A DNA stretch of 64,000 nucleotides from Thermoproteota archaeon (GCA_029258885.1 JAPDJW010000002.1:128001-192000); one strand, 5' to 3'. Shown: positions 25,874 to 58,048, numbered from the stretch's first letter. Program-made: numbers and translations. The notes: a model not told the origin generated them from the letters alone.

Positions 25874-25991
25874 ATTATAATCCCCTAAAATAAATATTTC
25901 ACCCACATTTTAATTTTTCTCCCACACACATGGACGTTTCCTCTCGACAGTAAAGTAATTTAAGGTTGGTGGTATTGAAACATTGGTGGAT

Positions 25992-27308: not shown

Positions 27309-28696
27309 GCGAGAATAGGCATTTTGGTCTAGCAATATCCCCTGTAGATGGGAGATATAGGAGGATAGTTGAGGAGCTGGCGGAGTTCTTTTCGGAATAC
27401 GCCCTAATGAGGCTTAGAGTATACATTGAGCTTGAATACTTAATCCATTTATCCGAGTTCACTAAAGGCAAGGTCGTAAGGAGGCTATCGGATAGCGAGA
27501 AGGATAGGATACGAAGTATAGCTAGAAACTTTAGCTTAAAGGATTTCGATAGGGTGAAGGCGTTGGAAGCCGAAACACGCCACGACGTTAAAGCTGTAGA
27601 GTATTTTCTCAGGGAAAAGCTCATCGAGAATATGTTATCCGACCTAATACCAATGATACACTTCGGTCTAACATCGGAGGACGTAAATAACCTAGCATAC
27701 TCAATAGCTATAAGAGACTTCACTAGAAAGCTCTTCATAACATCCATAAACAGGCTATTAAAACAGTTATCAAAGCTAGCTAGGGAACACAAGGCAACAC
27801 CCATGCTAGCTAGAACCCACGGCCAGCCGGCATCGCCAACAACCCTAGGGAAAGAGCTCGCCGTCTTCATCTATAGGATATTCCGCTACAAGGAGAAGCT
27901 GGAGACAGCGGAGCTGCCCGGGAAATTGAGTGGAAGCGTTGGAAACTTCAACTCATTCACCGCAGCATACCCTGAGGTAAATTGGCTGGAATTCAGTAAA
28001 AGCTTTATCGAAAAACTAGGCTTAAAATATTATCCAATAACAACCCAAATTCTACCGCACGACGAGATATCGGATATCCTCTGCTTATACCATGGGTTAT
28101 GTAATGTTCTAATAGATTTATGTAGGGACTTATGGCTATACTGTAGCTACGGGTATCTAGAGCTACAGACGGGAAGGAAAACCGTAGGCTCCTCTGTCAT
28201 GCCACACAAGGTGAATCCAATAGAATTTGAGAATGCTGAGGGAAACCTACAGATAGCATCGGAGCTTTTAAGTTTTGCATCCGCTAAACTGCAGATATCG
28301 AGGCTACAGAGGGATTTATCCGACTCAACGGTGAAGAGGAACTATGGAGTAATATTCGCACATATAATGATTGCAATATATAATATTATAAAGGGGCTAA
28401 GCAAGATACGGGTAAACGTAGAGAGAATGGAGCAGGATCTAATGGAAAACTCCCAGGTACTATCGGAGGCATACCAGACTATCCTCCGGAGCAGAGGATA
28501 TGGAGAAGCCTACGAAATTGTGGCGGAAAAGGTCAAGGGGAGGAAGCTAAGTCTGGAAGAAATGAGGGAGATAGCTAGAAGCCTTAATGTAGACGATGAA
28601 ACCAGGAAGATGCTGATAGATCTAGATCCGAGAAAGTACGTAGGGATAGCGGATAAGCTAGTGGAATATGTCCTGAGTATCGTGGATATCTTCTAG
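27293..28696 (+). CDS. purB: Adenylosuccinate lyase (E. coli-type architecture)
   Basis: AISPVDGRY, HFGLTSEDVNN, RTHGQPASP, GSSVMPHKVNP and SRLQRDLSDSTV. Confidence 0.95.
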   Translation: MGKILSENRHFGLAISPVDGRYRRIVEELAEFFSEYALMRLRVYIELEYLIHLSEFTKGKVVRRLSDSEKDRIRSIARNFSLKDFDRVKALEAETRHDVKAVEYFLREKLIENMLSDLIPMIHFGLTSEDVNNLAYSIAIRDFTRKLFITSINRLLKQLSKLAREHKATPMLARTHGQPASPTTLGKELAVFIYRIFRYKEKLETAELPGKLSGSVGNFNSFTAAYPEVNWLEFSKSFIEKLGLKYYPITTQILPHDEISDILCLYHGLCNVLIDLCRDLWLYCSYGYLELQTGRKTVGSSVMPHKVNPIEFENAEGNLQIASELLSFASAKLQISRLQRDLSDSTVKRNYGVIFAHIMIAIYNIIKGLSKIRVNVERMEQDLMENSQVLSEAYQTILRSRGYGEAYEIVAEKVKGRKLSLEEMREIARSLNVDDETRKMLIDLDPRKYVGIADKLVEYVLSIVDIF

Positions 28697-28698: not shown

Positions 28699-30966
28699 TT
28701 ACCTTCTTTTACCCAGCTTGAAGACCAGTATAAGTGCGATCACTAGGAGAAGCGAGAGTATTATTGTTTGAATGTCGATGCCTCCCTTTTCCTCTTCGAT
28801 TGCCTCAAACTTTATTTCAAGCTTTCCTCCAAGATATCTATCGGTCTCAGGTACTTCTACTATTACAGTCCAATTACCTTTCTTATTGACTTCGATGGAA
28901 TATCTAAAGTTGCCCTTTTCATCTATCTCCAAAATCTTTTCTACGGCCATGTTAGCGGGATCAATTATCTTCAAGATTACGTTTTGAAGCTCCTCAGATG
29001 GCTTAACGTATCCGGAAATATTCACCTTTATTCCAAGCTTAACTCTATCCTCTACTCCGCTGATGTTAATCTCTCTTAAGCCCTTAAGTACGGCAACATT
29101 TACAATGTTCGATATGCTCGGCTTATACCTTTCGGAGCCGAAGAAGCATGCTCTAAAACTGTAGTTTCCCGGGTCAAGCCTAATGCTGAACGTAAATCGA
29201 CCACTGGAGTCCGTGGAAACAACCTCCACTCCCTTCCACAGGTTGCCGACCTTCCTCTCTATCAGAATATCCACCTTAATTGGAGGATCTATACTGCCGC
29301 TTAAGGTCACGTTCTCAGGATACCTAAACTCGGGTTTAGCTGTAGAGAGAGTTAAGCTGGTTTCCCTTTTAACAGCTGGGCGTCTCGATATATCGGCGTA
29401 AAACTTGGCTATTCTAGCCTTCACGTAGGAGCTGACGTACTTATTCTCATTAAACAGCTGGACTGCCTCATTGTAAAGCTCATCAGCCTTATCGATTAGG
29501 GTAACTCTATTATCTTGACGCGCCCTACTTATAGCCTCAGCGGCCTTATTAATTGAGTCCTGGACGAAACTTATACATTCGCTTAAATTCAGTTCCTTAG
29601 CTAAAGCTATGCTTTCATTAGCATACTTAACAGCTAAATCGTACCTACCACACCCGAACATAAGCTTAGCTTTAAGAAGCCTATCCATGGCCGAGACAGG
29701 TATTATCTCCTCAGCAATAAGCTCCAAGACGGCCTCCGTAGCATTCTCAAATACGAACCTATAGGCTTCAAGCACTTCCTCGCTAACGTCATACTCTCCT
29801 ATTAGGCTCAGCGCATTGGTTACAATAGGATCCTTCATGAAGTACTTCCATATACTAGAGTTAAGGTAATTTGCTATAGTTAGCAGTATCATGCCTTGGT
29901 CTAAAGCCAAGTAATCCTCGTCAACAATGCCTGAAACCAGGTTAACCGAATCCTTAAATCCCAGATCCTCCCTGACGCCCATCTCCTCAAGCATTAGGAG
30001 ATTAAGGAAAACGCGTTCTGGAAAATACAGTAAAGCTAAGACCGAGGCGTGCGGAGTAGCCACAGCAAAATTCATGCCGTATCCGCCCTCAGGTATATCA
30101 CATGGAGAAAAGCCCCAGACAGGATAACCTTGATCATTAGCGAACGTCATTTGAGCAATAGTCACATTAATTGTAGATCTGCATATAAACGAGCCCCTCT
30201 CGTCAACGAATATTCCGGGCATATAGTATATGAAGAGGCCAGCCTTCCACCCCCAAAGGAAGGAAATATTCCTATAGAACTGCATATCTCTCTTTAAAGC
30301 AAACCAGTGTTCAGCCGGGATCTTACCTGAACCTATGCCGATTAAACTGGCCATGCGTGATTCTATAGCTAAATAGTCATAATGAGCCGAAGTATAGTGC
30401 TTACCTATACTATCATATCCTATATAGAGGAGCTTAGCGCTCGAGTCATACAATTTATCCCACTCCATCATGTCCAGAAGCTTAGTTATGTTCTCATAAA
30501 GCTCTGGGAAGGCGTTCCTAGCAACTATTAAGCCAGCTGCATACCATCCAGCATCAACAGAGGACACAAAGTTACCCCAAATAGGGGACAACGTCTCTGC
30601 ATTATACCAGTTAAAGGGTATACCGTGCCACTTCTCAAGCTTCAATAATGTCTCCACAGTCTTCTTAGCTCGACTTAAAGCTTCATCCCTATCTATAAAG
30701 CCGAGATCATACGCCGCAACGATAGAAGCCAAATATAGCCCCATGTTAGTTATCGAAGTCTGAGGATTTCCCGGCGTACTTCTATCGTAAGGCAACCCCG
30801 TCCAGTTACACGTATATCTTACGAAGCAATTCCAAGTATCCCTAGCAAGCTCCAATAGATAATTTTTAAGTTTATCCGGAATAGCTCTAGCCATATTACC
30901 TCTATTAGTAATGGTAAGCGAGGATATAATTAGAATTGTTATTAAAGCTAACGATAAGTGCTTCAT
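28699..30966 (-). CDS. Secreted, C-terminally anchored glycoamylase/DUF3131 glycoside hydrolase (GH144/GH189-like) with Ig-like stalk
   Basis: Signal peptide, then TSITNMGLYLAS, PFNWYN, VSSVDAGW, YDYLAIESR, WGFSP, TPHAS and YLALDQGM. Beta-sandwich repeats follow, then TM plus KRR. Confidence 0.75.
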   Translation of the reverse strand: MKHLSLALITILIISSLTITNRGNMARAIPDKLKNYLLELARDTWNCFVRYTCNWTGLPYDRSTPGNPQTSITNMGLYLASIVAAYDLGFIDRDEALSRAKKTVETLLKLEKWHGIPFNWYNAETLSPIWGNFVSSVDAGWYAAGLIVARNAFPELYENITKLLDMMEWDKLYDSSAKLLYIGYDSIGKHYTSAHYDYLAIESRMASLIGIGSGKIPAEHWFALKRDMQFYRNISFLWGWKAGLFIYYMPGIFVDERGSFICRSTINVTIAQMTFANDQGYPVWGFSPCDIPEGGYGMNFAVATPHASVLALLYFPERVFLNLLMLEEMGVREDLGFKDSVNLVSGIVDEDYLALDQGMILLTIANYLNSSIWKYFMKDPIVTNALSLIGEYDVSEEVLEAYRFVFENATEAVLELIAEEIIPVSAMDRLLKAKLMFGCGRYDLAVKYANESIALAKELNLSECISFVQDSINKAAEAISRARQDNRVTLIDKADELYNEAVQLFNENKYVSSYVKARIAKFYADISRRPAVKRETSLTLSTAKPEFRYPENVTLSGSIDPPIKVDILIERKVGNLWKGVEVVSTDSSGRFTFSIRLDPGNYSFRACFFGSERYKPSISNIVNVAVLKGLREINISGVEDRVKLGIKVNISGYVKPSEELQNVILKIIDPANMAVEKILEIDEKGNFRYSIEVNKKGNWTVIVEVPETDRYLGGKLEIKFEAIEEEKGGIDIQTIILSLLLVIALILVFKLGKRR

Positions 30967-31015
30967 GATATCACTCCTAAGCTATTCACTGGCTTCATAT
31001 ATTTAAACTTTAAAG

Positions 31016-31133
31016 CATCATATTTAAAATAGAGCTTATTAGAGTAAGAATCTAACATATAGATGCATTAAAATATAGTAATATCATAATATTTTTGCGA
31101 ATTAGGGTTTTATAATAAAACTTAAATATGATG
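31016..31133. promoter_or_regulatory. Inverted pair of a 12-bp motif in the divergent promoter
   Basis: CATCATATTTAA (31016-31027) is the exact reverse complement of TTAAATATGATG (31122-31133). Similarity extends to a shared TTTAAAG. Confidence 0.55.
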
Positions 31134-31179
31134 TTTTTTAAAGAATATATGTTGATAATATGCAGATAAGGTTTTAAAA

Positions 31180-33531
31180 ATGAAGAATATGCTTGGTTAT
31201 TTTTCACATAGGGGTAAAGAATTTATTATCACGTCATATAATTTACCGAGGCCCTGGATAAACATACTTTCAAATGGAAAATATGGGGTACTGCTTTCAC
31301 ATACAGGAGGAGGCTTCAGCTGGCTTATAGACTGTAATCTGAATAGGATAACGAAGTGGTATCAGGACGTCTACAGCGATATGGACGGCAGGTATCTATA
31401 CATAAGAGATAAGGATACGGGGGAGTATTGGTCGCCTACCTATAAGCCTGTCATGAGGGATCTGGATAGCTACGAGTGTAGGCATGGCTTAGGATATAGC
31501 GTAATCAGGAGTAGCTATAAGGGTGTGGAGACGGAGATAATATTCTTCGTCCCTAGGGAGGATACGCTTGAAGTATGGATAGTAAAGCTTAAAAATAATA
31601 CGGGAAGACTGAAAAAACTTGAAGTTTTTACGTATGTTGAATGGTGGCTTGGAACGGCCTACGATATAGACAGGCAATTTCATGGTTTGTTCTATGATTT
31701 ATGGGTTGAGGATAACGTAATGTTTGTAACAAAATATTTTTGGACAGGATACGATGGAAGCTGGAATAGATCATGGGACTATATAGCCTTTCTAGCGACC
31801 TCGATAGCTCCAAGCGGATTCGAGGGAAGTAGGGTTAACTTCGTAGGAAGTGGTGGATCAATTAGAGATCCAGTAGCAGTTAGGGAGGGTGTATGTACAA
31901 ACACTAGTGGGCGGGGCTTTGAGCCAGTAGGCGTGTTTAAGCTCAATATATCCTTAAAGCCAGAAGAGGAGAGAACATTCATAGTTTTAATAGGTGTTGG
32001 GAAAAGCGTGGAGGAGGTCAAAGATTGTGTACGAAAGTACATAGACCTAAGGTATTCACTGGATAGGCTGGAGGATGTTAAGCTCTTCTGGGATAAGCTC
32101 CTGAGTAAAACGCTGGTTGAGACCCCAGATAAATACCTAAACTATCTCGTTAACTACTGGTATAAATACCAGACTATAAGCGCTAGAATCCTATCTAGGA
32201 ACGCCTACTACCAGCAGGCAGCTGCCTACGGCTTTAGAGATCAGCTTCAAGATACGTTAACTCTTCTCTTGGTGGACTACGAGTGGGCTAAGAAACAGAT
32301 ATTGGAGCATGCTAGGCATCAGTTTTCGGATGGAAGCGTGCTACATTGGTGGCATGAACTAAATGATAGGGGCATGAAATCCGAGCATTCGGATACTCCA
32401 CTCTGGCTTCCCTTTATGGTTATAAACTACATAAAGGAGACGGGCGACTACAATTTCCTTAAGCTGAAGGTGCCCTTCTATGATGGTGGGGAGGCGTCAA
32501 TATTTACTCACTGTGAGTTAGCAATAAAGAGATGCCTAAGGAACTTCAGTAAACGAGGCCTACCGTTATTTTTAGCTGGAGACTGGAACGACGGTTTTAA
32601 CGCCATAGGAATTAAGAGGAGGGCTGAAAGCTGCTGGCTCGCAGAGTTCCTATATTTAGTTTTAATGGAGTTCTCGAGGCTATGTACGATTATAGGTGAT
32701 AGGAGAAAAGCCAAAAAATACAGGAGAAAGGCGCGTGAGCTAAAGAGGAAGTTTAATGAATTATGTTGGGATGGTGGCTGGTTTATAAGGGGTTTCGACG
32801 ACGAGGGTGAGGCTATAGGAAGTAGCGCTTGCAGAGAGGGCAAGATATTTCTCAACGCTCAAAGCTGGGCTGTAATTTCAAAAATTACATCGAAGAAAAG
32901 AGCTAAAAAGGCTATAGTATCAGCCGAGAAGATGCTAGATACAGAGTATGGTCCAGCTTTATTCACACCAGCATATAGTCGTCCATACGAAAAACTCGGT
33001 TACATCTCTAGGTATGCTCCGGGAACTAAGGAGAACGCTGGAATATTTATGCATGCTGTAACGTGGATGATCATAGCAGAGTGCATGCTGGGAAGAGCTA
33101 GGAAGGCCTATGAAATATATAGGAAGACTTGTCCAGCATACAGGGGATTGGATCCGTGGAAATGTAAAACAGAGCCCTATGTAACGTCGGAGTGGATAGC
33201 TGGACCTGAATCTAAATACTTTGGTGAGGGATGGAACTCCTGGTTAACAGGCTCAGCTGCGTGGAGCCTTAGAGCGGTTCTCGACTACATATTGGGTATA
33301 AGAGCGGACTACGATGGGCTTATAGTTGACCCATGTATACCAAGGGAGTGGAGGGAATATAGGGTTCGCAGGTTCTTTAGAGGAGCAACCTACGAAATAC
33401 ACGTTAAAAATGAGGCTGGAGTATCTAGGGGGGTAAAAAAGATACTTGTCGATGGAAGTGAGATAAAGGGCGTTAAGCTACCCTTATTCAAAGATGAGGA
33501 AACACACTATGTTGAGGTAATTCTGGGATAG
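31180..33531 (+). CDS. GH94 glycoside phosphorylase
   Basis: PRPWINILSN, YECRHGLGYS, YGFRDQLQD, AGDWNDG, LNAQSWAV, KENAGIFMHA and WLTGSAAW. No signal peptide. Confidence 0.92.
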   Translation: MKNMLGYFSHRGKEFIITSYNLPRPWINILSNGKYGVLLSHTGGGFSWLIDCNLNRITKWYQDVYSDMDGRYLYIRDKDTGEYWSPTYKPVMRDLDSYECRHGLGYSVIRSSYKGVETEIIFFVPREDTLEVWIVKLKNNTGRLKKLEVFTYVEWWLGTAYDIDRQFHGLFYDLWVEDNVMFVTKYFWTGYDGSWNRSWDYIAFLATSIAPSGFEGSRVNFVGSGGSIRDPVAVREGVCTNTSGRGFEPVGVFKLNISLKPEEERTFIVLIGVGKSVEEVKDCVRKYIDLRYSLDRLEDVKLFWDKLLSKTLVETPDKYLNYLVNYWYKYQTISARILSRNAYYQQAAAYGFRDQLQDTLTLLLVDYEWAKKQILEHARHQFSDGSVLHWWHELNDRGMKSEHSDTPLWLPFMVINYIKETGDYNFLKLKVPFYDGGEASIFTHCELAIKRCLRNFSKRGLPLFLAGDWNDGFNAIGIKRRAESCWLAEFLYLVLMEFSRLCTIIGDRRKAKKYRRKARELKRKFNELCWDGGWFIRGFDDEGEAIGSSACREGKIFLNAQSWAVISKITSKKRAKKAIVSAEKMLDTEYGPALFTPAYSRPYEKLGYISRYAPGTKENAGIFMHAVTWMIIAECMLGRARKAYEIYRKTCPAYRGLDPWKCKTEPYVTSEWIAGPESKYFGEGWNSWLTGSAAWSLRAVLDYILGIRADYDGLIVDPCIPREWREYRVRRFFRGATYEIHVKNEAGVSRGVKKILVDGSEIKGVKLPLFKDEETHYVEVILG

Positions 33532-34851
33532 TTATCTGCTATATTTATCAACCCACCTACTATAGACGTCAGTCCAATCTCCTCTTCCAACGAATACTGT
33601 TAGCTGAAACTCCCTTGACTCTCTAGGCCTTAATGTCACAGTATTAAATACTAGCTCTATTGAGTAATAGCTGGGGCTAAAGTAACGTTTTACTAGAGAT
33701 ACATCATCCAGACTCCATAGGATTCCAAGTATTTCTTTCGTTGTATTATTGTAGTAGGCAGCCCATCCATTTGTTACTCTCTCGTCGCTAAGCTGAGTGT
33801 GGCGCCGCTTATACACCTCCTTATATCTTTCCTCGGGAAGTTCCTTAAGATAATACGTCGGCCACGTTATTCCAGAATAGTTGGGTTCAAACCTTTCAAC
33901 GTAAGTTCCGTTTTCAACAGGAAGATACAGCCAGTCATCCGTACTCACATCGCCTCCAATATTTAGATAGTTGCATACCCACAGCGACACCTTCTGCGTA
34001 GTTCTATTTAAGTTTGTAACTATATACTTTACATCAAACTCTGAATTAATGGAATCCATTGAGATCACTTTCTCAAGCTTGATTCTGCCTACGTTTTCTC
34101 CTTCAAGCACCTTAGAGAACATTACCTTTACCCTTTTACCATAGCCCCTAAGTATCTCGTAATCATATCTCTCGTTAGCTAAATATACTCCCCACCCCTC
34201 CTCGAGAAATGTATCATACAGCATGCCCAGCGACTCGTAAACTTCATTGGTTCCAGTTTCCTTATATATCAGGCTATTTATCCTCCCACCGCTGTTTGGA
34301 GCAATTGATAGGAGAAGCTTATTATTCTCCATAACTACTTCATCCACGCCATCCTCGTTAAAATCAAATGTCTTAATCCTGGCCTCATTTATTAAAGGTA
34401 TGTAAGTATCCTCCTTTATCGCCCTAAGTACCAGCCTAGATTTAAGCCCCTTAATGTATGGAATTCTAGATAACCTTTCAATAAACCTAACTAATTCATC
34501 GGATGTTCTGCATCTAACTTTCGCAAATATGTTAGATTCATTCTCAATAACATAAAGTTCCGTAATTTCATGCATGGATGAAAGATTTTTAATTGCCTCA
34601 GAGAGCATAGAGGGCTCGACTTTAATCTCCAGCAGAGAAAGATAGTCATAGTTAACTTTCTTAACGTCAAGCTGAACGGTATACTTCTTAATAATGCCCT
34701 TCTTAACCATCGCATCCATCCTACGCTTAACGGTAGTCGCCGTAGCTTCAATGCCGAATTCCTTAAGGCGCTCAGCTATATCAATAAGCGAGGTCCTGCT
34801 ATTTTCCATTAAAATCATTAGAATTCTCTTATCTATCTCGTCCAGCATCAC
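33532..34851 (-). CDS. Lrp/AsnC regulator fused to a C-terminal carbohydrate-type beta-supersandwich (DUF1926/galactose-mutarotase-like)
   Basis: LDEIDKRILMILMENSRTS HTH plus RAM domain in aa 1-150. Then FDFNEDGVDEVVMENNKLLLSIAPNSGGRINSLIYK. Confidence 0.78.
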   Translation of the reverse strand: MMLDEIDKRILMILMENSRTSLIDIAERLKEFGIEATATTVKRRMDAMVKKGIIKKYTVQLDVKKVNYDYLSLLEIKVEPSMLSEAIKNLSSMHEITELYVIENESNIFAKVRCRTSDELVRFIERLSRIPYIKGLKSRLVLRAIKEDTYIPLINEARIKTFDFNEDGVDEVVMENNKLLLSIAPNSGGRINSLIYKETGTNEVYESLGMLYDTFLEEGWGVYLANERYDYEILRGYGKRVKVMFSKVLEGENVGRIKLEKVISMDSINSEFDVKYIVTNLNRTTQKVSLWVCNYLNIGGDVSTDDWLYLPVENGTYVERFEPNYSGITWPTYYLKELPEERYKEVYKRRHTQLSDERVTNGWAAYYNNTTKEILGILWSLDDVSLVKRYFSPSYYSIELVFNTVTLRPRESREFQLTVFVGRGDWTDVYSRWVDKYSR

Positions 34852-35082
34852 TATACACCCTCGTATCTTCTCCGACTTATGTATTAAAAACTCACATATT
34901 AAAGTTTATTTCGAACAATAACTCGTAAAATTCCAAAATTAACAAGATTATCCATGTACGAAATATGGCTGACTAAAGCTATAATTACTTTAAGGCGATA
35001 TTTAGAAAACAACGTAGTATAGAAAAAAATAAATATTCGATAGTTAAAATATAAAATTGCAGTGTTAAAAAAAGGTGTTAGT

Positions 35083-36276
35083 ATGAATAAAAATAAAGTG
35101 TCGGGCCTACTTATTGCGGTAATGCTTCTTCTAATGCTTCTGCCCATGCTTAGAATAGACAGCTATGTTAAGGCCACTCCCCAAAGAAGAGTTGTATTTG
35201 AATGGGTTAACCAAACAGCCAAGAAGTTCCGTGTAAAGACTTCATACATTGAATGCTACTTTGAGGGAGAGCAGGGTGGAAGCCTAATAGAGATAAAACA
35301 CTACGCCGTACCAAACGTGGATTTTGTAGATGACGTAAAAATGGCTGCGACAGGTCCCGACATCGGCTGGACCTCGTCGAGGTGGGGCATAGACATTTCG
35401 AATGTCACGGTATCCTACAGGGAAATTGAGGAGGATCTATTGGAGGTAAACGTTACTGCATTAAATAATAACATAAAGTTTGAGCATATATTCTACTTTA
35501 CGGACAGCGACGTAATACTGGTCTGGTACAGAGCCACACTCCTAGCGGATATCAATCTAACTTCAATAGGAGCAGAATTCGTACCAGCAACCATAGCTAC
35601 TTCAGGAGCCCAGGTTGTATGTACAGACTACTTCGGTAACCTAATAACCCACACATTGAACGGTAGCATGCTCTATATAGTATTTGGAAATTCAAGCGAA
35701 GGAACACTGCCTCTAAAGGAGAACTGGATGGCCGTATATAACCCAGATGTAAATGCTTTCGCTGGAATAATATGGCTTGACCCGGAGATGTTTATAACCG
35801 ATAAGTCGACCGTAGGCGTATGGGACGGCGCGGTATGGTCTGTAGCTTCGCTCGTCTCTAGATGGTTTGATGATCCCAAGGGCAAGGTATTCCCGAAGGG
35901 AACAATGTTCGAAAACTACCTATTAATAGTCGTCGGCTCTGGAAGCTATGATAGAATTAGGGCATTAGGTGAATTAGTAAGAAACATAAATTCATACTAT
36001 CAGAGAGTAAAGATATCTACACTACTAGAGCAGATAAGCTCGCTCCAGAGCGCATACTCATCTCTACAGTCAGACTACAACTCCCTCCAGACCCAGTATA
36101 ATACACTTCAAACGGAGTATAACTCATTAAAGGCAGAGTTCGATGAATATAAAGCTCAATATACGGTTACTCAGGCTCAACTGCAGCAAACACAGATGAC
36201 TTCAATAATTATAGGCATTGTAATAGGTCTAATAATAGGATTCGCTTTAGGATGGTTTATAAAGAAGAAAAAGTAA
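35083..36276 (+). CDS. Surface protein: signal peptide, beta-supersandwich, coiled-coil stalk, C-terminal TM
   Basis: ATG at 35083 after AAGGTG. Contains the EQGGSLIEIKH motif, heptad repeats and the IIIGIVIGLIIGFALGWFIKKKK anchor. Confidence 0.7.
   Translation: MNKNKVSGLLIAVMLLLMLLPMLRIDSYVKATPQRRVVFEWVNQTAKKFRVKTSYIECYFEGEQGGSLIEIKHYAVPNVDFVDDVKMAATGPDIGWTSSRWGIDISNVTVSYREIEEDLLEVNVTALNNNIKFEHIFYFTDSDVILVWYRATLLADINLTSIGAEFVPATIATSGAQVVCTDYFGNLITHTLNGSMLYIVFGNSSEGTLPLKENWMAVYNPDVNAFAGIIWLDPEMFITDKSTVGVWDGAVWSVASLVSRWFDDPKGKVFPKGTMFENYLLIVVGSGSYDRIRALGELVRNINSYYQRVKISTLLEQISSLQSAYSSLQSDYNSLQTQYNTLQTEYNSLKAEFDEYKAQYTVTQAQLQQTQMTSIIIGIVIGLIIGFALGWFIKKKK
36046..36150 (+). repeat. Imperfect 21-bp (7-aa) tandem repeats forming a coiled coil
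   Basis: LQSAYSS-LQSDYNS-LQTQYNT-LQTEYNS-LKAEFDE. Confidence 0.7.
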
Positions 36277-36297
36277 GAAGATAATAAAGGTGTCAAA

Positions 36298-40216: not shown

Positions 40217-40234
40217 AATTAAGGTGAATACGTA

Positions 40235-43200
40235 TTGAGGAGATCCCATACCAAGCTAAAATATTCATTAATAATTTTTTTAATAATTACTATCCTTTTT
40301 CTTCCGACAGTTTCTGCTTCCCCCGGAAGCTCCACGCCAGTCTCCGACGTAGAAGTAATTAAAAAATTTATAGGCAATAGCACAGCCGCCGTATTAAGCC
40401 ATGTGAGGACTCTTTCTTCCTACGGCTCTAGAGTTGTGGGGACTCAAGGCTTCTATGAAGCTAGAGATTATATAGCGTCGATTATGAGCAATCTGGCTGA
40501 TGAAATATATTACCAGAACTTCACAGTAGCTGTGCCACGCTACGATATAGACTTCTCCTATAGCGTAGACGGTAATAACTATAGAGCCAAAATATATGCA
40601 ATCCTTCCTAATGGCTTCTCTCTAGGTCAGATTGGGGATATAGAGGGAGAACTAGTTTATGTAGGATCCGGCGAGCTTGATTCATATAGAAACATGAATG
40701 TTAACGATAAGATAGTTCTCATAGACTTCGAATCAGAGATAAACTGGCTTAGATACGGGAGCATACTAGGACCCCCCAAGGCATACATCTTCATCGAGCC
40801 GTACGTTCGAGGAGCGACATTTAACGATTCACTGGGTACCGAATTTACGAGAAAAGACGTATATGGACAATACGTCTCCATCCCAATAAATACGCCTAGA
40901 TTCTACGCAAGGATTAGTGATATTAAACATATTCTATCGTTGCTTGAAAATGGGAAAACGATCAAGGGTAAAATACGTGTGAGGGCTGAATGGCGCCTGG
41001 TCAAGGCATGTAATATAATAGGCTACATTAAAGGCACAGTTTTTCCCGACGAGGTATTAATTGTAGCTGCACACTATGACTCCTACTCTATAGTCCCCGA
41101 AATTTCTCCCGGAGCGGATGAAGCTCTTGGAATAAGCTTTATGCTAGAACTAATGAAGTTCTTCAGTATAAATAGGCCGAAAAGATCGATACTTTTCGTA
41201 GCATTATCCGGACACTGGGAAGGCTTGGCTGGAGCAAGGATTTTCACAAAAAACATAATCTTAGGGAAAACTTACAACGTGAAATTATTCATATATCTGG
41301 CTTTTTCGGCATCTGGAAGCGAGCTTGCAATTCTCCATGCAGGACGATTCTACTTTAATCCAACGGCGGGAATAGAGTATCACAGAGCTGGAGTGTTAGA
41401 TAAACTCAACCTCTACATAGGACAATTAAAGATAAAACTGTATGGAGGAGAAAGGAGCGTAGAGAGTTTCATATATCCCGGCTACGCTTGGCTCAACATA
41501 ATATATGGGGATCCTCTCTCAATCTTCGATAGCGAGGCCTTTACACTCGCTGGAGGATACGGTCTAGCCTTCTACGTTCCAGGTCCAAGGCTGTACTGGG
41601 GTACGCCCTACGATGAATATTCCAAGTTTAAAGAGAATTTCGAGAATAACGTAGTTTCAAGGAAGTCAAACTTCCTAGAAGCCTCAGCCTCATTAATATA
41701 TATTCTGGCAAACGACCTAGAGCTTAACATTAAGGAGCCAAGCTTCCGTCTTTTTGATACAAACTATGGTGGCTTCTCCACAATCAGGGGACGCGTATTA
41801 ATATACAACTTAAGCACGGGATGGTATACCCCAGTACCTAATGCTATTGTCAGATTAAGGGTAATAGCCAGCATGCCTAATTCATTTGGCCTCGGAATAT
41901 ACGGTGGATACCCCAAAATAAAGGCCGAATACGTGGAGGGATACTATACTACATCTGGAAGCATAATTAACATAACTGATAGCAAGGGCGAATTCACAAT
42001 ATATGGGATATCGCCGTCAGCCCTCCTGGGAACGGAGTACCTTCCGAGCATAAGGTACAGCTATATAATAGAGGCGTGTATCCTCAATGAAAGAGGCGAG
42101 ATAGAATACTACAGCGACCTAGGAGTACACAGCAGAGATGTAGTGTTTGAAATCAATAGGGAAGAAGAGATGGTAAACCATGTTATTTTCAGATGCGGTT
42201 CAATAATTGCTTATTCGATAATAGAACCTGAAACTCTATCAATACCGAAAATATTTAGGCTTGAGGTAAGGGACGCATTAAGCCACATGACCCCGCAATT
42301 TTACGGAAGCACTTTCTACTCATTCAGCGAGGGATATAGCGCTTTCATAGTATTTTCGAGACCAGATACCCCCATTGAAATATTTATAGTATCGAGAAGC
42401 CCCCTAACAGGCGAACCCAAGCCGCTGGTTTTCCTAAACAATGTAAGCAGAGGACTTAGAGCTGAATATGGTCGTAGCACCTACCTGAAGTTCTCATTCA
42501 TCCAGATAGCAGAAGATCTTTACAATATATGTTCGGAACGCTATAGCATGTTTTATAGTCAGGGGATAAGGAACCTTGAAGTAGAGGATAACCTTAACAG
42601 CATAAGACTGTATCTGGATAAGGCTAGGGAGAAGGTTGCCTTAAACGAATACACTCAGTCCATGATTCTAGCGCTGGAGGCTTGGAAGCTAGCTAGAGAA
42701 GTATACGTGAAACTGTATTACGAAGGTTTAAACATAAGGTTTTCAATAATATTTGTATTTATTCTCCTAATACCCTTTATCTACTTCTTTGAGAGGCTCC
42801 TCTTCATGTACCCCGATATTAAAAGACAGACGCTAGCGATGGTTTCAATTTCTATAGTAATAGTTGTATTCCTATACCTCATGCATCCGGCCTTTAAGCT
42901 GGTAGAGGATCTTTTCCTCCTTTTCCTAGGAGTATTAATTTCTGTATTAACTCTACCTACAATGGCTATACTCTTATTCGACTTCGCTTCGCTACTCTAT
43001 GTATTTAAGAAGAAGGTTAGAGGACCTCACTTTACTGGTATAAGCCGTAGCGGAGCTATAGTTGCAGCTTTCAATATTGGTGCGTCGATGATGAGGCGAA
43101 GAAAACTTAGAAGTAGCCTAACCTTCGCAACCCTAGTCATAATAATTCTAGCACTTATAATATTCTCATTCCCCGCCGTAACCATCGGTGTAGTTAAGCG

Positions 43201-44797
43201 GAACACCTATCTGGCACCAACATACACTGGAATACTCATACGAGATAGCCTGTGGAGAAACATACCTACGAAAGTTATTAATTTAGTAAACTTAACTTTA
43301 AAGGAGTCCGGATACCCCTACAGCATATCAACTAGGGTATGGCTTTACCCATCGGATTCAATATACATAGCTGGCAGGAATGAGGAATTCAAGGGGCTAA
43401 TTAGCGCTTTCTTAGGCTTCGATTGGAGGGAGGATAAGGTATCGGGTATAAGCGGCCTCATTGTGAGGGGTAGATGGTTTAAGGAGAACGATTATCAAGT
43501 ATGTATTGTTGATGAAAAGGCTGTGGAATATCTAGGCATAAATCTAACTAACGTAGCTTTAGGCAGGGAATACCTTACTTTCTCTAATGGATTAAAGCTG
43601 AAGGTGGTAGGCGTAATAAATGGTAAATTATTCAGTAACAAGCTGGAGCTGGATGGAGGAAACTTTACTCTCCTAGATATTAAGGGTATAGCTGTGGGCT
43701 TAAAAGAGGAGCGTATGAAGCTATTCAGATATTTGCCTACCAGTATAGTGCGGGGGGAGGATCTAGGCTACTTCATAGTAATAGTGCCTTCAAAACTAGC
43801 CTTAGACTTGGGAGGAAAAGTCTATAGTATAGCCGTAAAGGTTCATGAAGCTAACATCTATAGGACGCTGGAGGCCATCGACGATATAGCTAAAAATCTA
43901 GCATTAAGGCTAAACAAGACGTACTTTATATACGCCGTACAATTAACTCCGAAAAAGACTTTAAGTGTCTATAGATATATGGTCTCCCCAGTGTATGTAT
44001 CAGGAAGCGTAGAGCAGCTCGTAATACCGATTGCTATAGGCATATTAATACTATTCAACTCTATGCTATCAAACGTGTACGAGAGAGCTAAGGAAATAGG
44101 CGTCTACAGCGCATTAGGATTATCGCCTTATCATGTATCGGGAATGTTTCTAGCTGAAGCAGTAATTCTAGCCGTAGTAAGTAGCATGATAGGTTATTTA
44201 ATGGGCGTATTCCTGGCTAAAATGATAAACGTATTCAAGCTATTCCCCAAAATATATCTAAACTTCACCATCAGCATACCGATATATTCAACTATGCTTT
44301 CGATAGCTGCATCCCTGCTTGCTATATGGTATCCAGTACTCAGAGCATCTAAGATGGTAACACCATCCTTTGAAAGGGAATGGAAGCCAAAAAGCAAGCC
44401 TAGAGGAGATGCCTGGATAGTAAACCTGCCGTTCGTAGCTACAAGTATGAGCGAAGCTAAGGCTATTCTTAAATTCATCTTGGAGTACCTCGAACATTAT
44501 AGAGTACACGGCAAAATATTCACTACGCTGGAGGCAGGTATACGCTACGAGGAGGAAACGCCGGTACTCAAGGCAAAACTTCAGATGGCACCATATGAGC
44601 TTGGAATACAGCAGGACGTATCTATAGTTATATCCAGGATAGCGGAAGAACGATACTCGTTCACGCTTGAAATGAGGAGAATTAGAGGTCCAAGACAGTC
44701 TTGGATAAGATCCTCGACTATTCTTGCGAGAGAGCTTAGAAAGCAATTCCTAATATGGAGGGGGTTAAGTCTTGAGGAGAAGAGAAAATACGAATAA
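40235..44797 (+). CDS. 1520-aa fusion of an M28-peptidase-like/PA ectodomain with FtsX-type permease domains
   Basis: SRVVGTQG, AAHYDS, PGADEALG and LSGHWEGLAG. Then RRRKLRSSLT and SNVYERAKEIGVYSALGLSP....FLAE. Confidence 0.78.
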   Translation: MRRSHTKLKYSLIIFLIITILFLPTVSASPGSSTPVSDVEVIKKFIGNSTAAVLSHVRTLSSYGSRVVGTQGFYEARDYIASIMSNLADEIYYQNFTVAVPRYDIDFSYSVDGNNYRAKIYAILPNGFSLGQIGDIEGELVYVGSGELDSYRNMNVNDKIVLIDFESEINWLRYGSILGPPKAYIFIEPYVRGATFNDSLGTEFTRKDVYGQYVSIPINTPRFYARISDIKHILSLLENGKTIKGKIRVRAEWRLVKACNIIGYIKGTVFPDEVLIVAAHYDSYSIVPEISPGADEALGISFMLELMKFFSINRPKRSILFVALSGHWEGLAGARIFTKNIILGKTYNVKLFIYLAFSASGSELAILHAGRFYFNPTAGIEYHRAGVLDKLNLYIGQLKIKLYGGERSVESFIYPGYAWLNIIYGDPLSIFDSEAFTLAGGYGLAFYVPGPRLYWGTPYDEYSKFKENFENNVVSRKSNFLEASASLIYILANDLELNIKEPSFRLFDTNYGGFSTIRGRVLIYNLSTGWYTPVPNAIVRLRVIASMPNSFGLGIYGGYPKIKAEYVEGYYTTSGSIINITDSKGEFTIYGISPSALLGTEYLPSIRYSYIIEACILNERGEIEYYSDLGVHSRDVVFEINREEEMVNHVIFRCGSIIAYSIIEPETLSIPKIFRLEVRDALSHMTPQFYGSTFYSFSEGYSAFIVFSRPDTPIEIFIVSRSPLTGEPKPLVFLNNVSRGLRAEYGRSTYLKFSFIQIAEDLYNICSERYSMFYSQGIRNLEVEDNLNSIRLYLDKAREKVALNEYTQSMILALEAWKLAREVYVKLYYEGLNIRFSIIFVFILLIPFIYFFERLLFMYPDIKRQTLAMVSISIVIVVFLYLMHPAFKLVEDLFLLFLGVLISVLTLPTMAILLFDFASLLYVFKKKVRGPHFTGISRSGAIVAAFNIGASMMRRRKLRSSLTFATLVIIILALIIFSFPAVTIGVVKRNTYLAPTYTGILIRDSLWRNIPTKVINLVNLTLKESGYPYSISTRVWLYPSDSIYIAGRNEEFKGLISAFLGFDWREDKVSGISGLIVRGRWFKENDYQVCIVDEKAVEYLGINLTNVALGREYLTFSNGLKLKVVGVINGKLFSNKLELDGGNFTLLDIKGIAVGLKEERMKLFRYLPTSIVRGEDLGYFIVIVPSKLALDLGGKVYSIAVKVHEANIYRTLEAIDDIAKNLALRLNKTYFIYAVQLTPKKTLSVYRYMVSPVYVSGSVEQLVIPIAIGILILFNSMLSNVYERAKEIGVYSALGLSPYHVSGMFLAEAVILAVVSSMIGYLMGVFLAKMINVFKLFPKIYLNFTISIPIYSTMLSIAASLLAIWYPVLRASKMVTPSFEREWKPKSKPRGDAWIVNLPFVATSMSEAKAILKFILEYLEHYRVHGKIFTTLEAGIRYEEETPVLKAKLQMAPYELGIQQDVSIVISRIAEERYSFTLEMRRIRGPRQSWIRSSTILARELRKQFLIWRGLSLEEKRKYE

Positions 44798-46661
44798 ATT
44801 AAAAGAAGGCTTCACTATAAGGTCAATCTTAGGAATACTCTATGTAATACTAATACTATTGCCCACAAACATGTACTATACTTTAGCCATAGGCGGAAGC
44901 CTAGCGTTTGCAGCGCCGATAATATCCCTAATATTCTTCCTTGAAGTATTCCGCTTCTCGGAACGTCCGCTGACGAAACAGGAGGCTTTTATCATATACT
45001 CGATAGCCTCTGAAGCAGCTATGGGGAGCGTTGCGATGGCCCTGATAGGAAACGTATATTTTAGGGCAAGTCCGATGGCAGAGTACTTTGGAATAAGCGG
45101 AATAATACCCGACTGGTGGGCGCCAGCTCCCACATCCGAGGCAATACAGCTCCGCACGTTCTTCCACAGCGACTGGATTCTACCAATAACAATTCTATTC
45201 TCTGCGTGGACTCTAGGAAAAATCATAGATTTCTCGCTAGCAACATACCTCTACTACCAGCTGATAGAGATAGAGAACCTACCCTTCCCGCTAGCTAAGG
45301 TCTCAGCTGAAACAGTACTAAGCTTAGCAGACCCCAGATACGCGCATAAGAGGAGGATGTTCGCTATTGCAAGTATCGTTGGGCTGGCATATGGAATAAT
45401 AACATACTTAGTACCGATACTAACCGACTATAGGTTAGTCATAATTCCATCCCCATTCTACGATCTAACCAGATATATTGAGCATATTGCGCCGGGAGCC
45501 AGCTTGGGAGTATCAACGGACTTGGTGGCATATACTGTAGCCTTCTATATGCCTCACAGTTTCATCATAGTACTATTTATGACGTCCCTGGCAGTATACC
45601 TCTTCGGAAACCACCTGCTGGTTAAAAACGGCTATTTCAAACTCTACATGCCCGGAATGAGCCTTGGGGAAATATTCACGTGGTCCTACATCTCCTACTG
45701 GATAAACCCAACAGTAGGATTCGGAGTAGCAATAGCACTCTTCCAAATAATATACAATAGAAAGTATATTCTAGATGCTATAGGGAAGTTCGGACAGGTA
45801 GGTGAGGTTGCTACACTCAAGACAAAATTGCCAGCATACATGTTCTTTGCATCCACCGCCATAGCTTCCCTCATGGCATGGGCTCTCTCAGGCTTCAACC
45901 CATACTACCTATTAATCATAGTCTCGGTTTCAATAGTCTGGTCGTTCCTGTTCTCACATCTACAGGGAAGAGCTCTAGCAGAATTCGGAATTACGTTTGA
46001 TATACCATACTTCGTGCCTGCAATAATATATATAAGTGGAGCCAGGGACCCCAAGCTATGGTTTGTACAGACTGCTGGCTTCACAGTCTATACAGGAGGA
46101 GTTAGTTTACTCCAGCAGTTGAAGGTAGCAACTCTCTGTGAGACTAAGCCAATGAGCTATATTAAAGCCTGGTTCTTCACGTGGTTCGTAGGGGCAATAG
46201 CGAGCATAATATTTCTACAAATGTTCTGGAGCATAGCTCCGATACCCTCCTCGATGTATCCGGCATCGCTAATAAACTTCCCAGTACAGGCAGCTGAACA
46301 ATATTTACTTCTATCTACAGTCACCGAAATAGGGAGTAAGGCCATTACGCTGGATATCCACAGCATTACATACGGCTTCATTATTGGAGTAGTTTTATCA
46401 GCGCTAGCATACCTCCTAGGAAAATCGCCTTCACTAATAGGCCTAGGAATACTTGCAGGCATGAGGACATGGATATCAACGGCCATATCGTTTACAATAG
46501 GAATAGTAATTGCTAGGATAATTCAGAAAATATTGGGAAGGGAGAAGTGGGAGGATAGCAGATTCGTTATTGCAGCTGGGACATACGCTGGACTGGGGCT
46601 GGCAATAGGATTAAGCGTAATTATATTGTTCCTAAAGAAGGCATTAATTCTGCCGTACTAG
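44772..46661 (+). CDS. OPT-like polytopic membrane protein
   Basis: FTIRSILG, PLTKQEAFII, IENLPFPLA, PGASLG and W......AAG...G.GL. Overlaps the upstream gene. Confidence 0.7.
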   Translation: MRRRENTNKLKEGFTIRSILGILYVILILLPTNMYYTLAIGGSLAFAAPIISLIFFLEVFRFSERPLTKQEAFIIYSIASEAAMGSVAMALIGNVYFRASPMAEYFGISGIIPDWWAPAPTSEAIQLRTFFHSDWILPITILFSAWTLGKIIDFSLATYLYYQLIEIENLPFPLAKVSAETVLSLADPRYAHKRRMFAIASIVGLAYGIITYLVPILTDYRLVIIPSPFYDLTRYIEHIAPGASLGVSTDLVAYTVAFYMPHSFIIVLFMTSLAVYLFGNHLLVKNGYFKLYMPGMSLGEIFTWSYISYWINPTVGFGVAIALFQIIYNRKYILDAIGKFGQVGEVATLKTKLPAYMFFASTAIASLMAWALSGFNPYYLLIIVSVSIVWSFLFSHLQGRALAEFGITFDIPYFVPAIIYISGARDPKLWFVQTAGFTVYTGGVSLLQQLKVATLCETKPMSYIKAWFFTWFVGAIASIIFLQMFWSIAPIPSSMYPASLINFPVQAAEQYLLLSTVTEIGSKAITLDIHSITYGFIIGVVLSALAYLLGKSPSLIGLGILAGMRTWISTAISFTIGIVIARIIQKILGREKWEDSRFVIAAGTYAGLGLAIGLSVIILFLKKALILPY

Positions 46662-57610: not shown

Positions 57611-58048
57611 ATAGAAATTTTTACCATTAATTTCTTTCTTTAAGTAAATACCTTACAACATTGTCTTTATATCGTTCGATTTTAAAGCCCTATATATGAG
57701 TGAAACATAAAAGCTGGAGTATACTCACTTATCACAGCCATGAATCGATATTATGGCAACCTTAGGCTTATAAGTTAAGTTATTATAGGCTATTAAAACT
57801 GAGTTGCTCAGTGCCGTAGCTATTGGAGCTACGATAAGTATCCTTTTGCTACTTCACACCGATTTCATATGACTGCTGCTTATTCAAAATAGCATAAGCA
57901 AACTATTAACTTTTTACATAGCTCCAGTTTTTCTCTACGGCTCTTAAATAGTCATTTACTACGCCCACATAGGTAATATCTAGCGTTAAGATTGCTGAAA
58001 TATAGAAATAGTAATAAGGATAGTAATTAATAGTAATGGCATAGGCTG

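Follow-up and report, generated by a model that had tools for sequence, protein, structure and literature searches.

A conserved eight-gene archaeal cluster with a predicted role in beta-1,2-glucan use and a membrane trio of OPT-fold and FtsX-type proteins

We read a conserved eight-gene cluster from an uncultured, thermophilic archaeon as the counterpart, in archaea, of the SGL gene clusters of bacteria, serving the use of beta-1,2-glucan; we put the probability of this reading at roughly 55%. We infer the substrate and the transport function from family membership and gene context. Bacteria make beta-1,2-glucans as periplasmic or cyclic glucans. The cluster lies in a 64,000-nucleotide stretch of DNA (the window), in which we recovered all eight contiguous open reading frames that a sequence-only reading had placed between positions 28699 and 46661 (Table 1). 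That reading had also reported no ABC ATPase, solute-binding protein or MFS transporter, and we found no such domain in 28.7–46.7 kb; the closest ABC system, a Liv-type operon, lies at 7.3–12.1 kb of the window. Genes g4 to g8 are co-directional, with intergenic gaps of 18–21 bp or overlaps of 20–26 bp. In two other loci, L027 and L028, the g1/g2 spacer keeps its TATA-like elements and the 5′ leader of g2, and the g3/g4 spacer its TATA-like blocks. A search for a common operator gave nothing significant.

Table 1 Genes and divergent spacers of the cluster, numbered along the window
Feature	Position	Strand	Length	Description
g1	28699..30966	-	755 aa	Surface-anchored SGL-clan glycoside hydrolase, predicted inverting endo-beta-1,2-glucanase
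g1/g2 spacer	30967..31179	.	213 bp	AT-rich, divergent, putative promoters
g2	31180..33531	+	783 aa	Cytoplasmic GH94 phosphorylase, predicted beta-1,2-oligoglucan phosphorylase
g3	33532..34851	-	439 aa	Lrp/AsnC regulator fused to C-terminal domain
g3/g4 spacer	34852..35061	.	210 bp	Divergent, putative promoters
g4	35062..36276	+		Membrane-anchored surface protein: locus-specific head, coiled-coil stalk, C-terminal TM
g5	36298..38244	+		Second anchored surface protein
g6	38225..40216	+		DUF6785/DUF6784 polytopic membrane protein, OPT superfamily (type A)
g7	40235..44797	+	1520 aa	Giant M28 + FtsX fusion
g8	44772..46661	+		OPT-fold polytopic membrane protein (type B)

The membrane trio g6–g8 combines two OPT-fold proteins with an FtsX-type giant. 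Pfam matched g6 to DUF6785 and DUF6784 only (125 and 60 bits), and the g6 family is homologous to that of g8 (hhalign probability 99.9, E 3e-32, 536 columns). The AF2 model of g8 (pLDDT 92.9, pTM 0.92) matched barley Yellow Stripe 1 (HvYS1, 7wsr/7wst) in Foldseek with E ~1e-9 (1.4e-9 for 7wsr) and TM-scores of 0.67–0.70, and nothing else in the PDB below E 1e-3. The Pfam OPT profile (PF03169) was matched by five of nine g8 paralogues and orthologues (best E 2e-14), g8 itself giving no match at E ≤ 0.1. These Pfam, profile and fold matches bear out the earlier label 'OPT-like', and we conclude from alignment and modelling that g6 and g8 are homologous, divergent OPT-fold permeases. They differ from the OPT family (TC 2.A.67) in that identity is only ~15%, that they always occur as two divergent paralogues with the FtsX giant, and that their gene context is one of glycans rather than of peptides or metal chelates. 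The substrates of characterised OPT transporters are peptides or metal chelates and not sugars, and to our knowledge all these transporters are importers. For bacterial OPT subcluster 4C, xylo-oligosaccharide uptake was proposed from gene context by Saier's group (PMC3061005).

The third member, g7, consists of a pseudo-M28/PA ectodomain (~aa 30–800), a TM bundle, a MacB-type Porter/Sabre ectodomain, an FtsX TM domain with a strongly conserved coupling-helix motif (aa 1283), and a C-terminal domain in the cytosol (aa 1375–1520). Pfam detected M28 and FtsX (FtsX 62 bits), and NCBIfam MacB and ADOP. The M28 match spans only profile positions 1–93 of 193, the Glu-Glu catalytic/zinc pair is missing (H-W or H-Y in 10 of 10 homologues aligned, and H-W in every paralogue) and the residue at the bridging Asp position varies among homologues (D, S, T or N); judged by its residues, the M28-like ectodomain is catalytically dead. 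An AF2 model of aa 790–1520 (pLDDT 85) matched MacB, LolCDE, YbbP, HrtB and BceB with a Foldseek probability of 1.0 (TMt 0.59 against the MacB periplasmic domain), and the tail gave weak Foldseek matches to Bet v1/PYL-like folds. The protein thus resembles the Type VII ABC proteins (MacB, LolCDE, FtsEX, YbbAP, HrtBA, BceAB) in its TM fold, Porter/Sabre ectodomain and coupling-helix motif, but differs from them in its giant pseudo-M28/PA ectodomain, its extra cytosolic C-terminal domain, its obligate pairing with OPT-fold genes and its lack of a fused or adjacent ATPase. We found no cognate ABC ATPase in the locus or adjoining any of the genome's eight trios; the MacB-type ATPases of the genome adjoin small FtsX genes only, apart from one orphan (C2:342683-343423). 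We know of no MacB-type protein that carries substrates over the cytoplasmic membrane, and all those known to us require an ABC ATPase.

Upstream of the trio, g4 and g5 each begin with a signal-like segment and have one TM, at the C-terminus. Both had been described as anchored surface sandwich proteins: the anchoring held, while a sandwich fold found no support for either, and no carbohydrate-binding module was recognisable in Pfam, NCBIfam or the PDB. The g4 protein gave coiled-coil matches and a weak match to the SlaB stalk, its stalk is homologous to those of proteins adjoining two other trios (cp4 and cp7), and an orthologue is present in L111 (E 1e-76). For g5, orthologues were found in L027, L028 and L111 (E 1e-184), and no relatives in Pfam, NCBIfam or the PDB.

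Co-occurrence of the trio with carbohydrate-active enzymes elsewhere had been set as a test of the proposal. The 2.1 Mb host genome contains eight paralogous trios, seven of which adjoin distinct sets of CAZyme or sugar-catabolic genes, and the trio components co-diversify (r 0.51–0.79). Anchored proteins flank every trio and are enriched there, with 14 of 46 encoded within 7.6% of the genome. Elsewhere, a metagenomic trio adjoins a Melibiase gene, and a bacterial DUF6785 gene adjoins NamZ. The same enzyme pair, SGL-clan hydrolase plus GH94 phosphorylase, is found in one archaeon of the Hadarchaeales and one bacterium of the Ignavibacteriales, where a CUT1 ABC importer including solute-binding proteins replaces g4–g8. 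It is also conceivable, although we consider it unlikely, that the enzymes use beta-glucan while the trio is no importer but a platform on which anchored surface proteins are assembled or mechanically driven, so that surface hydrolases are activated or positioned as FtsEX controls EnvC/PcsB, with uptake through a canonical ABC system. Such a platform would suit the MacB/LolC/FtsX fold of the C-terminal half of g7, a class that acts outside the membrane and not in import, as well as the anchored proteins around each trio, the coiled-coil stalks of g4-type proteins, which FtsX partners also have, and the three canonical CUT1 sugar ABC systems available in the genome. However, two OPT-fold permeases of an importer family are invariant in the module, an ABC importer takes the place of the module beside the same enzymes in the Hadarchaeales and Ignavibacteriales genomes, and, with eight trios against three ABC systems, cytoplasmic sugar enzymes are more often partnered by the trio.

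We then considered the substrate, beginning with g1, which had been described as an anchored glycoamylase/DUF3131 hydrolase; Pfam matches to Glycoamylase (PF10091, 72 bits) and DUF3131 (PF11329, 40 bits) agree with this. A hydrophobic signal-like segment at the N-terminus is followed by an (alpha/alpha)6 catalytic domain (~aa 37–408; nt 29743–30858), a helical linker, Ig-like repeats and one C-terminal TM. The top PDB match was TiCGS-Tg of family GH189 (8wy1, 149 bits), with which g1 shares the (alpha/alpha)6 domain and the general acid of the SGL clan (GH144/162/192/193/194): E202, within LAIESR, falls opposite LASEAR in TiCGS (reference residues CpSGL E211 and TiCGS E1356). F245 and Y351, candidates for the clan-defining Phe and Tyr (XcSGL F286 and Y367), are invariant among the aligned homologues. 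In contrast to TiCGS, g1 is a stand-alone extracellular protein and lacks the GH189 nucleophile (E1442 in WGISES; WGFSPC with P288 in g1), a Glu likewise missing in all stand-alone homologues aligned, and the supporting residues (E1400 is I246; H1536/H1537 are L355/D356). GH189 enzymes have a long alpha5, with additional helices lying between it and alpha4 (PMC12102758). The corresponding insert of ~165 aa is missing from g1 in both HMMER and MAFFT alignments, the HMMER alignment skipping the 8wy1 chain from 144 to 309 with no gap in g1. Because nucleophile and insert are missing, g1 is probably an inverting glucanase, nearest to GH189 in a comparison that included no GH193 sequence; it is neither GH144 nor a true member of GH189, the two families cited in the sequence-only reading. 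All SGL-clan hydrolases characterised so far are specific for beta-1,2-glucan (PMC12102758).

The product of g2 had been called a divergent cytoplasmic GH94 enzyme. It is a GH94 protein with no TM, but not a divergent one, with intact catalytic (403 bits) and supersandwich (255 bits) domains in Pfam and with the catalytic Asp of DWND (D471) and the phosphate-binding R353 and H625 aligned with the residues of cellobiose phosphorylase (CBP). PDB matches ranked CBP (548 bits) above Cgs (481 bits). In CBP a long catalytic loop closes the pocket (+1) (PMC5667895). The loop of g2 is short and Cgs-like, being 15 residues shorter (10 residues separate DWND from AES, compared with 25 in CtCBP), and Q165/R166 of the opposing CBP loop are replaced by H/G. 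We rejected assignment as a cellobiose phosphorylase (EC 2.4.1.20) for want of the extended loop and of Q165/R166. A close relationship to SOGPs of the Lin1839/LpSOGP type found no support, no SOGP chain being among the PDB matches at E ≤ 1e-5, and we assign g2 by its sequence to the Cgs-C-terminal type, likening it to SOGP by function and not by membership. Its clade, Cgs-C-terminal-like proteins of ~790 aa, has no characterised member, and was named putative SOGP in the Ignavibacterium album and Chloroflexus aurantiacus clusters by Nakajima's group (PMC8861115, PMC13731917). SGL-clan genes adjoin the g2-clade gene in 14 of 15 loci examined: a PF10091 gene stands beside it in seven of seven Omnitrophota loci, in L107, L109, L220 and L222 and in three orthologous loci, the sole exception being L221.

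That the locus handles another beta-linked substrate (cellodextrins, laminarin or chito-oligomers), with g2 a cellobiose-type disaccharide phosphorylase, appears doubtful. The top PDB sequence match and the 'cellobiose phosphorylase' annotation that JGI gives to clade members speak for it. Against it stand the CBP features missing from g2, the SGL-clan neighbours of its clade and the absence, by Pfam, of any cellulase, laminarinase or chitinase within the eight genes; in addition, L107 and L221 carry a GH35/GH42-family gene whose Pfam families are those of IaSGT, a characterised beta-1,2-glucosyltransferase (PMC8861115). The candidate substrates of the sequence-only reading, which included laminarin and cello- and chito-oligomers, can be narrowed to beta-1,2-glucan. 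Biosynthesis, in which the membrane genes would serve export of the product, is very unlikely: of the proteins in the host genome, g1 and g2 come closest to the cyclase and phosphorylase domains of Cgs, but the proteome of this 99.9%-complete genome contains no homologue of GT84 or of the N-terminal 1000 residues of Cgs, g1 is extracellular and lacks the transglycosylation nucleophile, g2 is cytoplasmic, and the same pair is linked elsewhere to importers with solute-binding proteins.

The beta-1,2-glucan reading also draws on synteny. Three other archaeal assemblies have the eight families together: L027 (genome G008), L028 up to the contig end, and GCA_975964445.1, where the order is rearranged and identity is 38–54%. 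We conclude that the eight-gene arrangement is not due to chance, because orthologues of all eight families are clustered in these three assemblies. A chance adjacency of unrelated enzyme and membrane modules, to which the occurrence of the trio in other contexts, with eight trios in this genome, and the rarity of g2 orthologues (at 70% identity in two of 40 relatives searched, making the locus patchy) might point, is largely refuted by families that stay together at 38–70% identity despite rearrangement, and we regard it as most improbable.

The regulator g3 had been described as a fusion of Lrp with a carbohydrate sandwich. The Lrp/AsnC part stood, with winged-helix (PF13412, PF13404) and RAM/AsnC ligand-binding (PF01037) domains in Pfam, and with NCBIfam Lrp matches that all fall under their equivalog cut-offs. 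The sandwich part, ~290 extra C-terminal residues, gave weak matches only, to carbohydrate-enzyme sandwiches in Pfam (E 4e-4 and 8e-4) and to the C-domain of a GH57 glucanotransferase (PDB 1k1w, E 0.0026), and is possibly a sugar-sensing beta-sandwich. The fusion is kept in L027, L028 and L107, adjoining SGL and GH94 genes.

We propose the following pathway. Anchored outside the cell, g1 would cut the glucan into sophoro-oligosaccharides, as its family membership suggests, and g4 and g5, also outside, may hold the substrate or pass it on, the weakest step of the scheme. The permeases g6 and g8, probably as a pair, would carry the oligosaccharides over the membrane, probably using an ion gradient, as known OPT carriers do. 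With its dead M28/PA ectodomain, g7 may be a MacB-type mechanotransducer whose role would be that of a receptor, a gate or a feeder; an ATPase from another locus may power it. In the cytoplasm g2 would phosphorolyse the oligosaccharides to glucose-1-phosphate, and g3 may sense the sugar and control both divergent promoters. This overall logic of outside cleavage, surface proteins, membrane module, inside phosphorolysis and local regulator had been anticipated, and it gains support from the conserved synteny, from the ABC importer in the trio's place in other lineages and from the CAZyme contexts of the eight paralogous trios.

The bacterial SGL clusters (Ignavibacterium album IALB_1177-1187, Chloroflexus aurantiacus Chy400_4165-4178 and Listeria innocua lin1839-1843) have the same main parts: an SGL-clan glucanase that is secreted, a putative SOGP (cytoplasmic GH94, Cgs-C-terminal type), a system for importing oligosaccharides and a regulator within the cluster; the GH35/GH42-family gene of the relatives L107 and L221 adds to the likeness. 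Here, however, the host is an archaeon without an outer membrane, the importer would be an OPT pair with an FtsX giant instead of an ABC/solute-binding or TonB system, TM segments anchor the surface proteins, an Lrp fusion stands in for LacI as regulator, and the glucanase is nearest to GH189 rather than GH144. The claim that no archaeal equivalent was known therefore holds for the archaeal host, the fused regulator and the importer; the enzyme set is known from I. album and C. aurantiacus. A likeness to Bacteroidota PULs had also been drawn. The logic appears alike, with a surface enzyme, surface proteins, cytoplasmic enzymes, a local regulator and one transporter paralogue per glycan, in a module multiplied across the genome in both. 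SusC/SusD homology and an outer membrane are absent, and Pfam detected no TonB-dependent receptor or SusD domain in the locus.

We found no paper describing an OPT pair with an FtsX giant. We suggest, tentatively and at somewhat less than even odds, that the trio is an undescribed class of oligosaccharide uptake system in uncultured Thermoproteota, with a paralogue for each glycan, and that the locus is the first archaeal pathway for scavenging beta-1,2-glucan. If so, secondary carriers of the OPT fold would work coupled to a mechanotransducer of the MacB type, and the trio would have diversified glycan by glycan, like SusC/D in Bacteroidota.

The sequence-only reading had proposed a candidate archaeal beta-glucan utilisation locus with a non-canonical importer, and ORF listing and translation bear out its eight contiguous genes (g1 to g8), which lie in an archaeal assembly of 2.1 Mb that is 99.9% complete. 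Its one wrong detail was to call the GH94 gene g2 divergent; Pfam recognises both GH94 domains, at 403 and 255 bits. Pfam and domain searches also agree that ABC ATPases, solute-binding proteins and MFS transporters are all absent from the locus. NCBIfam gave nothing further for g1, g5, g6 and g8. By hydropathy scan, g1, g4 and g5 have a signal-like N-terminus and one C-terminal transmembrane segment, g2 and g3 have no such segments, g6 and g8 have 9–12 each, and those of g7 fall into two clusters. Genes g4 to g8 share one orientation, with gaps of 18–21 bp or overlaps of 20–26 bp, and the two divergent pairs (g1/g2 and g3/g4) are each separated by a spacer of about 210 bp. Our preferred reading is that of an archaeal counterpart to the SGL gene cluster with which bacteria use beta-1,2-glucan. 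Its regulator fusion is new, and where the importer would be it has a membrane module of the OPT/FtsX type that is so far undescribed.

Features of the locus, of the other full trio copies (cp) and of related regions. Positions without a prefix are those of the window, which spans G000:C1:128001-192000; G, C and L denote genomes, contigs and fetched loci, and G000 is the genome under study.
Feature	Position	Content
Locus	28699-46661	g1 to g8
g1		Glycoamylase, DUF3131 (Pfam)
g2		Both GH94 domains (Pfam)
g3		Lrp/AsnC HTH and ligand domains (Pfam)
g5		No Pfam assignment
g6		DUF6785, DUF6784 (Pfam)
g7		M28, FtsX (Pfam)
g7 tail	44357-44797	aa 1375-1520
g8		No Pfam assignment
purA, purB	25983-28696	Directly upstream of the locus
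PAPS-reductase-like protein	52978-54285	
GH57 enzyme	54287-55855	Cytoplasmic, 303 bits
Peptidoglycan-catabolic region	56147-63773, on to G000:C1:192-225 kb (L016, L017)	Anchored: Amidase_2 (62331-63773), GH18 (61202-62257), PQQ-propeller proteins, GHL10, C39-like peptidase. Cytoplasmic: AnmK, GH3 NagZ-like, BadF-type kinase, MurQ-like SIS protein, NamZ, DAP-decarboxylase-like and beta-lactamase-like proteins
cp2, cp3		Peptidoglycan/MurNAc. Anchored: Amidase_2, GH18, GHL10. Cytoplasmic: AnmK, NagZ, MurQ-like, NamZ, LysA-like genes
cp4		GH130 with TrmB
cp5		DUF6259
cp6		GalK/GalT/GalE with Melibiase
cp7		Two GH57 genes with TrmB
cp8		C25-like protease only
Smaller FtsX-type giant beside cp5	G000:C4:94913-97876	987 aa
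Smaller FtsX-type giant beside cp6	G000:C2:99812-102685	957 aa
Orphan MacB-type ABC ATPase	G000:C2:342683-343423	No membrane-protein neighbour
Its 73% identical ATPase	G000:C2:376287-377009	
URO-D-like methyltransferase genes beside trios	L115:9212-12175; L016:1829-2923	
Other GH94 gene of the order	G026:C1:349086-351521	

Two of the neighbouring features call for comment. PurA is the long bacterial form (441 aa) and its closest relatives in the genome_contigs search are bacterial, with identities of 53% at most, a hint that it came from bacteria; the GH57 enzyme, adjoined by the PAPS-reductase-like protein, probably serves storage-glucan metabolism and has no relation to the locus.

The arrangement is conserved beyond the genome under study. 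An uncultured Thermoproteales MAG of the same order and a different family (G008, locus L027) keeps g1 to g7 in order at 53–70% identity, the fetched locus stopping inside the g7 orthologue, and a Guaymas Thermoprotei MAG keeps g1 to g5 in order at 59–73% identity up to the contig end. More distantly, GCA_975964445.1 carries all eight families on a single 34-kb contig in a rearranged order (g5 orthologue, DUF6785, M28-FtsX, OPT-like, g4 orthologue, two SGL genes, Lrp fusion and GH94), together with GH2 and GH35/42 genes. Linkage that outlasts rearrangement at 38–54% identity is good evidence that the eight families form a functional unit. The distribution of the locus is patchy, with g2 orthologues at 70% identity in 2 of the 40 relatives searched. 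Other GH94 genes, at 38–43% identity and with ORFs of about 825 and 950 aa, occur in another family of the order (G024, G026, G028, G030 and G032), so that GH94 phosphorylases are diverse in this order.

The solved structure closest to g1 is the GH189 transglycosylation domain of the Thermoanaerobacter italicus cyclic glucan synthase (Cgs; 8wy1, 149 bits), followed by the Agrobacterium Cgs GH189 domain at 129 bits, with GH144 structures at 64 bits or less. We placed the functional residues of GH189 defined by Tanaka et al. (PMC10834661) on g1 through a HMMER alignment. The acid/base glutamate is retained as E202, and the nucleophile E1442 is replaced by P288, E1400 by I246 and H1536/H1537 by L355/D356; g1 also lacks a segment of about 165 residues that is unique to GH189 according to the family paper (PMC12102758). 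An alignment of g1, the stand-alone proteins encoded beside related GH94 genes and two Cgs domains split cleanly, every stand-alone protein being without the GH189 residues and retaining the acid glutamate, a Ser/Thr-Val/Ile-Asp motif and an aspartate in place of the second histidine. These residue states and the clean split identify g1 as an SGL-clan enzyme adjoining GH189 and GH193. It is probably an inverting hydrolase, and by its predicted topology its catalytic domain is extracellular. All characterised hydrolases of the SGL clan are specific for beta-1,2-glucan (PMC12102758).

Aligned over its full length, g2 scores 548 bits against Clostridium thermocellum cellobiose phosphorylase (CBP) and 481 bits against the C-terminal GH94 domain of Cgs, and it retains both the DWND motif of catalysis and the Arg and His that bind phosphate. 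The disaccharide specificity of CBP rests on its catalytic loop and on residues of the opposing loop (PMC5667895). In the catalytic loop of g2, 10 residues separate DWND from AES, where CBP has 25 and Cgs 12, and Gln165/Arg166 of the CBP opposing loop are His/Gly in g2. The g2 family is large (proteins of about 790 aa, 43–49% identity) and extends to Omnitrophota, KSB1, Ignavibacteria, Chlamydiota and Hadarchaeales. Of 15 loci examined, 14 have a PF10091 gene no more than a few kilobases from the g2-family gene (7/7 in Omnitrophota, L107, L109, L220, L222 and three orthologous archaeal loci; the exception is L221). Two g2-type proteins have been described as putative beta-1,2-oligoglucan phosphorylases: IALB_1177 in an SGL cluster of Ignavibacterium album (PMC8861115) and Chy400_4165 in Chloroflexus (PMC13731917). 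We rejected the reading of g1 and g2 as a biosynthetic, split Cgs: full-length Cgs as query matches only these two proteins in the proteome, and the absence of any match to its GT84/N-terminal part argues against a biosynthetic role. We put the probability that g1 and g2 act on beta-1,2-glucan at roughly 0.7.

In the regulator g3, a complete Lrp/AsnC protein is extended by about 290 residues, and the first 40 of these show a weak similarity to the beginning of the GH57 4-alpha-glucanotransferase C-terminal sandwich (Pfam E 8e-4; PDB E 0.0026). This fusion accompanies the SGL–GH94 pair in four genomes; other trios of this genome have TrmB. A common sandwich fold in g3, g4 and g5 is unsupported: BLASTP found no significant similarity between the g3 C-terminal domain and either surface protein, or between g4 and g5 (E 0.06–3.5), and a weak GGxIxSL-type motif in the comparison is a lead only. 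A PDB sequence search returned no relatives of g5. For an operator common to both divergent spacers, the only shared sequences were AT-rich TATA-like 10-mers, which were not significant.

The membrane module is a trio of g6, g7 and g8. Although g8 alone has no Pfam match, five of nine g8 paralogues and orthologues match OPT (best E 2e-14), and profile–profile comparison makes the family homologous to the DUF6785/6784 family of g6 over 536 columns (probability 99.9, E 3e-32). Given an alignment of 80 sequences, AlphaFold2 modelled g8 confidently (pLDDT 92.9, pTM 0.92), and the model's sole significant PDB match is the OPT-family barley YS1 (E 1e-9, TM 0.67–0.70). The model of g7 residues 790–1520 (pLDDT 85) matches MacB, LolCDE, YbbP, HrtB and BceB, the Porter/Sabre ectodomain included, and in 30 homologues few segments are as well conserved as the FtsX coupling-helix motif. 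The M28-like part of g7 is similar to PA-domain peptidases and the transferrin receptor; none of the ten homologues aligned keeps its Glu-Glu pair, and it is thus not a canonical peptidase. The cytosolic tail of g7, conserved in all M28-FtsX giants, is modelled as beta-alpha-beta6-alpha with weak Foldseek matches to Bet v1/PYL (SRPBCC-like) ligand-binding proteins, and on this model may be a ligand sensor. Among 201 genomes sampled from the phylum, 52 carry DUF6785, frequently in many copies; it is absent from all 14 model genomes. Because a word-indexed search with g6 returned eight proteins, an exhaustive search was run with the g8 family, which has 479 representatives among 1.8 billion clusters. 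We found no paper describing the trio, and literature searches on DUF6785, archaeal PUL/FtsX and Thermofilales glycoside hydrolases gave no relevant match.

Gene context bears on import. A CUT1 ABC importer adjoins the SGL–GH94 pair in Hadarchaeales and Ignavibacteriales loci, a TonB-dependent receptor does so in KSB1, and at this locus the importer's place is occupied by the trio and two anchored proteins. The genome holds eight full trios whose neighbours, by Pfam, differ in glycan theme, cp2 and cp3 being flanked by the large peptidoglycan-catabolic region. Pairwise identities of the trio components correlate across copies (r 0.51–0.79), so that the three duplicate as one unit. Proteins that combine a signal-like N-terminus with a C-terminal anchor are over-represented near trios (14 of 46 fall within 7.6% of the genome, with a binomial p of ~5e-6, the proteins being clustered and hence not independent). 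Two anchored proteins of cp7 have heads that share homology with the N-terminal domain of the anchored GH57 enzyme there, as would be expected for substrate-binding surface proteins. Outside this genome, a Melibiase gene adjoins a metagenomic trio and NamZ adjoins a bacterial DUF6785 gene. Taking these observations together, we lean slightly towards the trio importing the products. The URO-D-like methyltransferase genes beside trios, accompanied in L115 by a corrinoid-binding protein gene, may strip methyl groups from methylated sugars or methoxy compounds once these have been taken up.

No ATPase adjoins any of the eight trios. OPT carriers are ion-coupled, and for this reason the permease pair may need none. 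The orphan ATPase could be a motor that the FtsX giants share; the other MacB-type ATPases of the genome adjoin small FtsX genes, of which there are three to four. A predicted complex of the orphan with g7 residues 790–1520 scored 0.24, the mark being 0.32, a result that counts neither for nor against the pairing. Three further large FtsX proteins (1045–1351 aa) are encoded elsewhere in the genome and, like the smaller giants beside cp5 and cp6, have no adjacent ATPase.

To our knowledge, beta-1,2-glucan catabolism has been reported from bacteria and fungi alone, and archaea go unmentioned in the two family papers; the locus would carry it into archaea. Taken with the peptidoglycan-catabolic loci nearby, it points to an archaeon living on bacterial envelope debris. 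It also offers a natural experiment, in which one enzyme pair is linked to an ABC importer in some lineages and to the FtsX–OPT trio in this one, and this swap makes the function of the trio directly testable with a defined, obtainable substrate, sophoro-oligosaccharides. If the trio is the importer, DUF6785 and DUF6784 would gain a function, a class of substrates new to the OPT superfamily would be added, and type VII ABC-like proteins would take on a further role.
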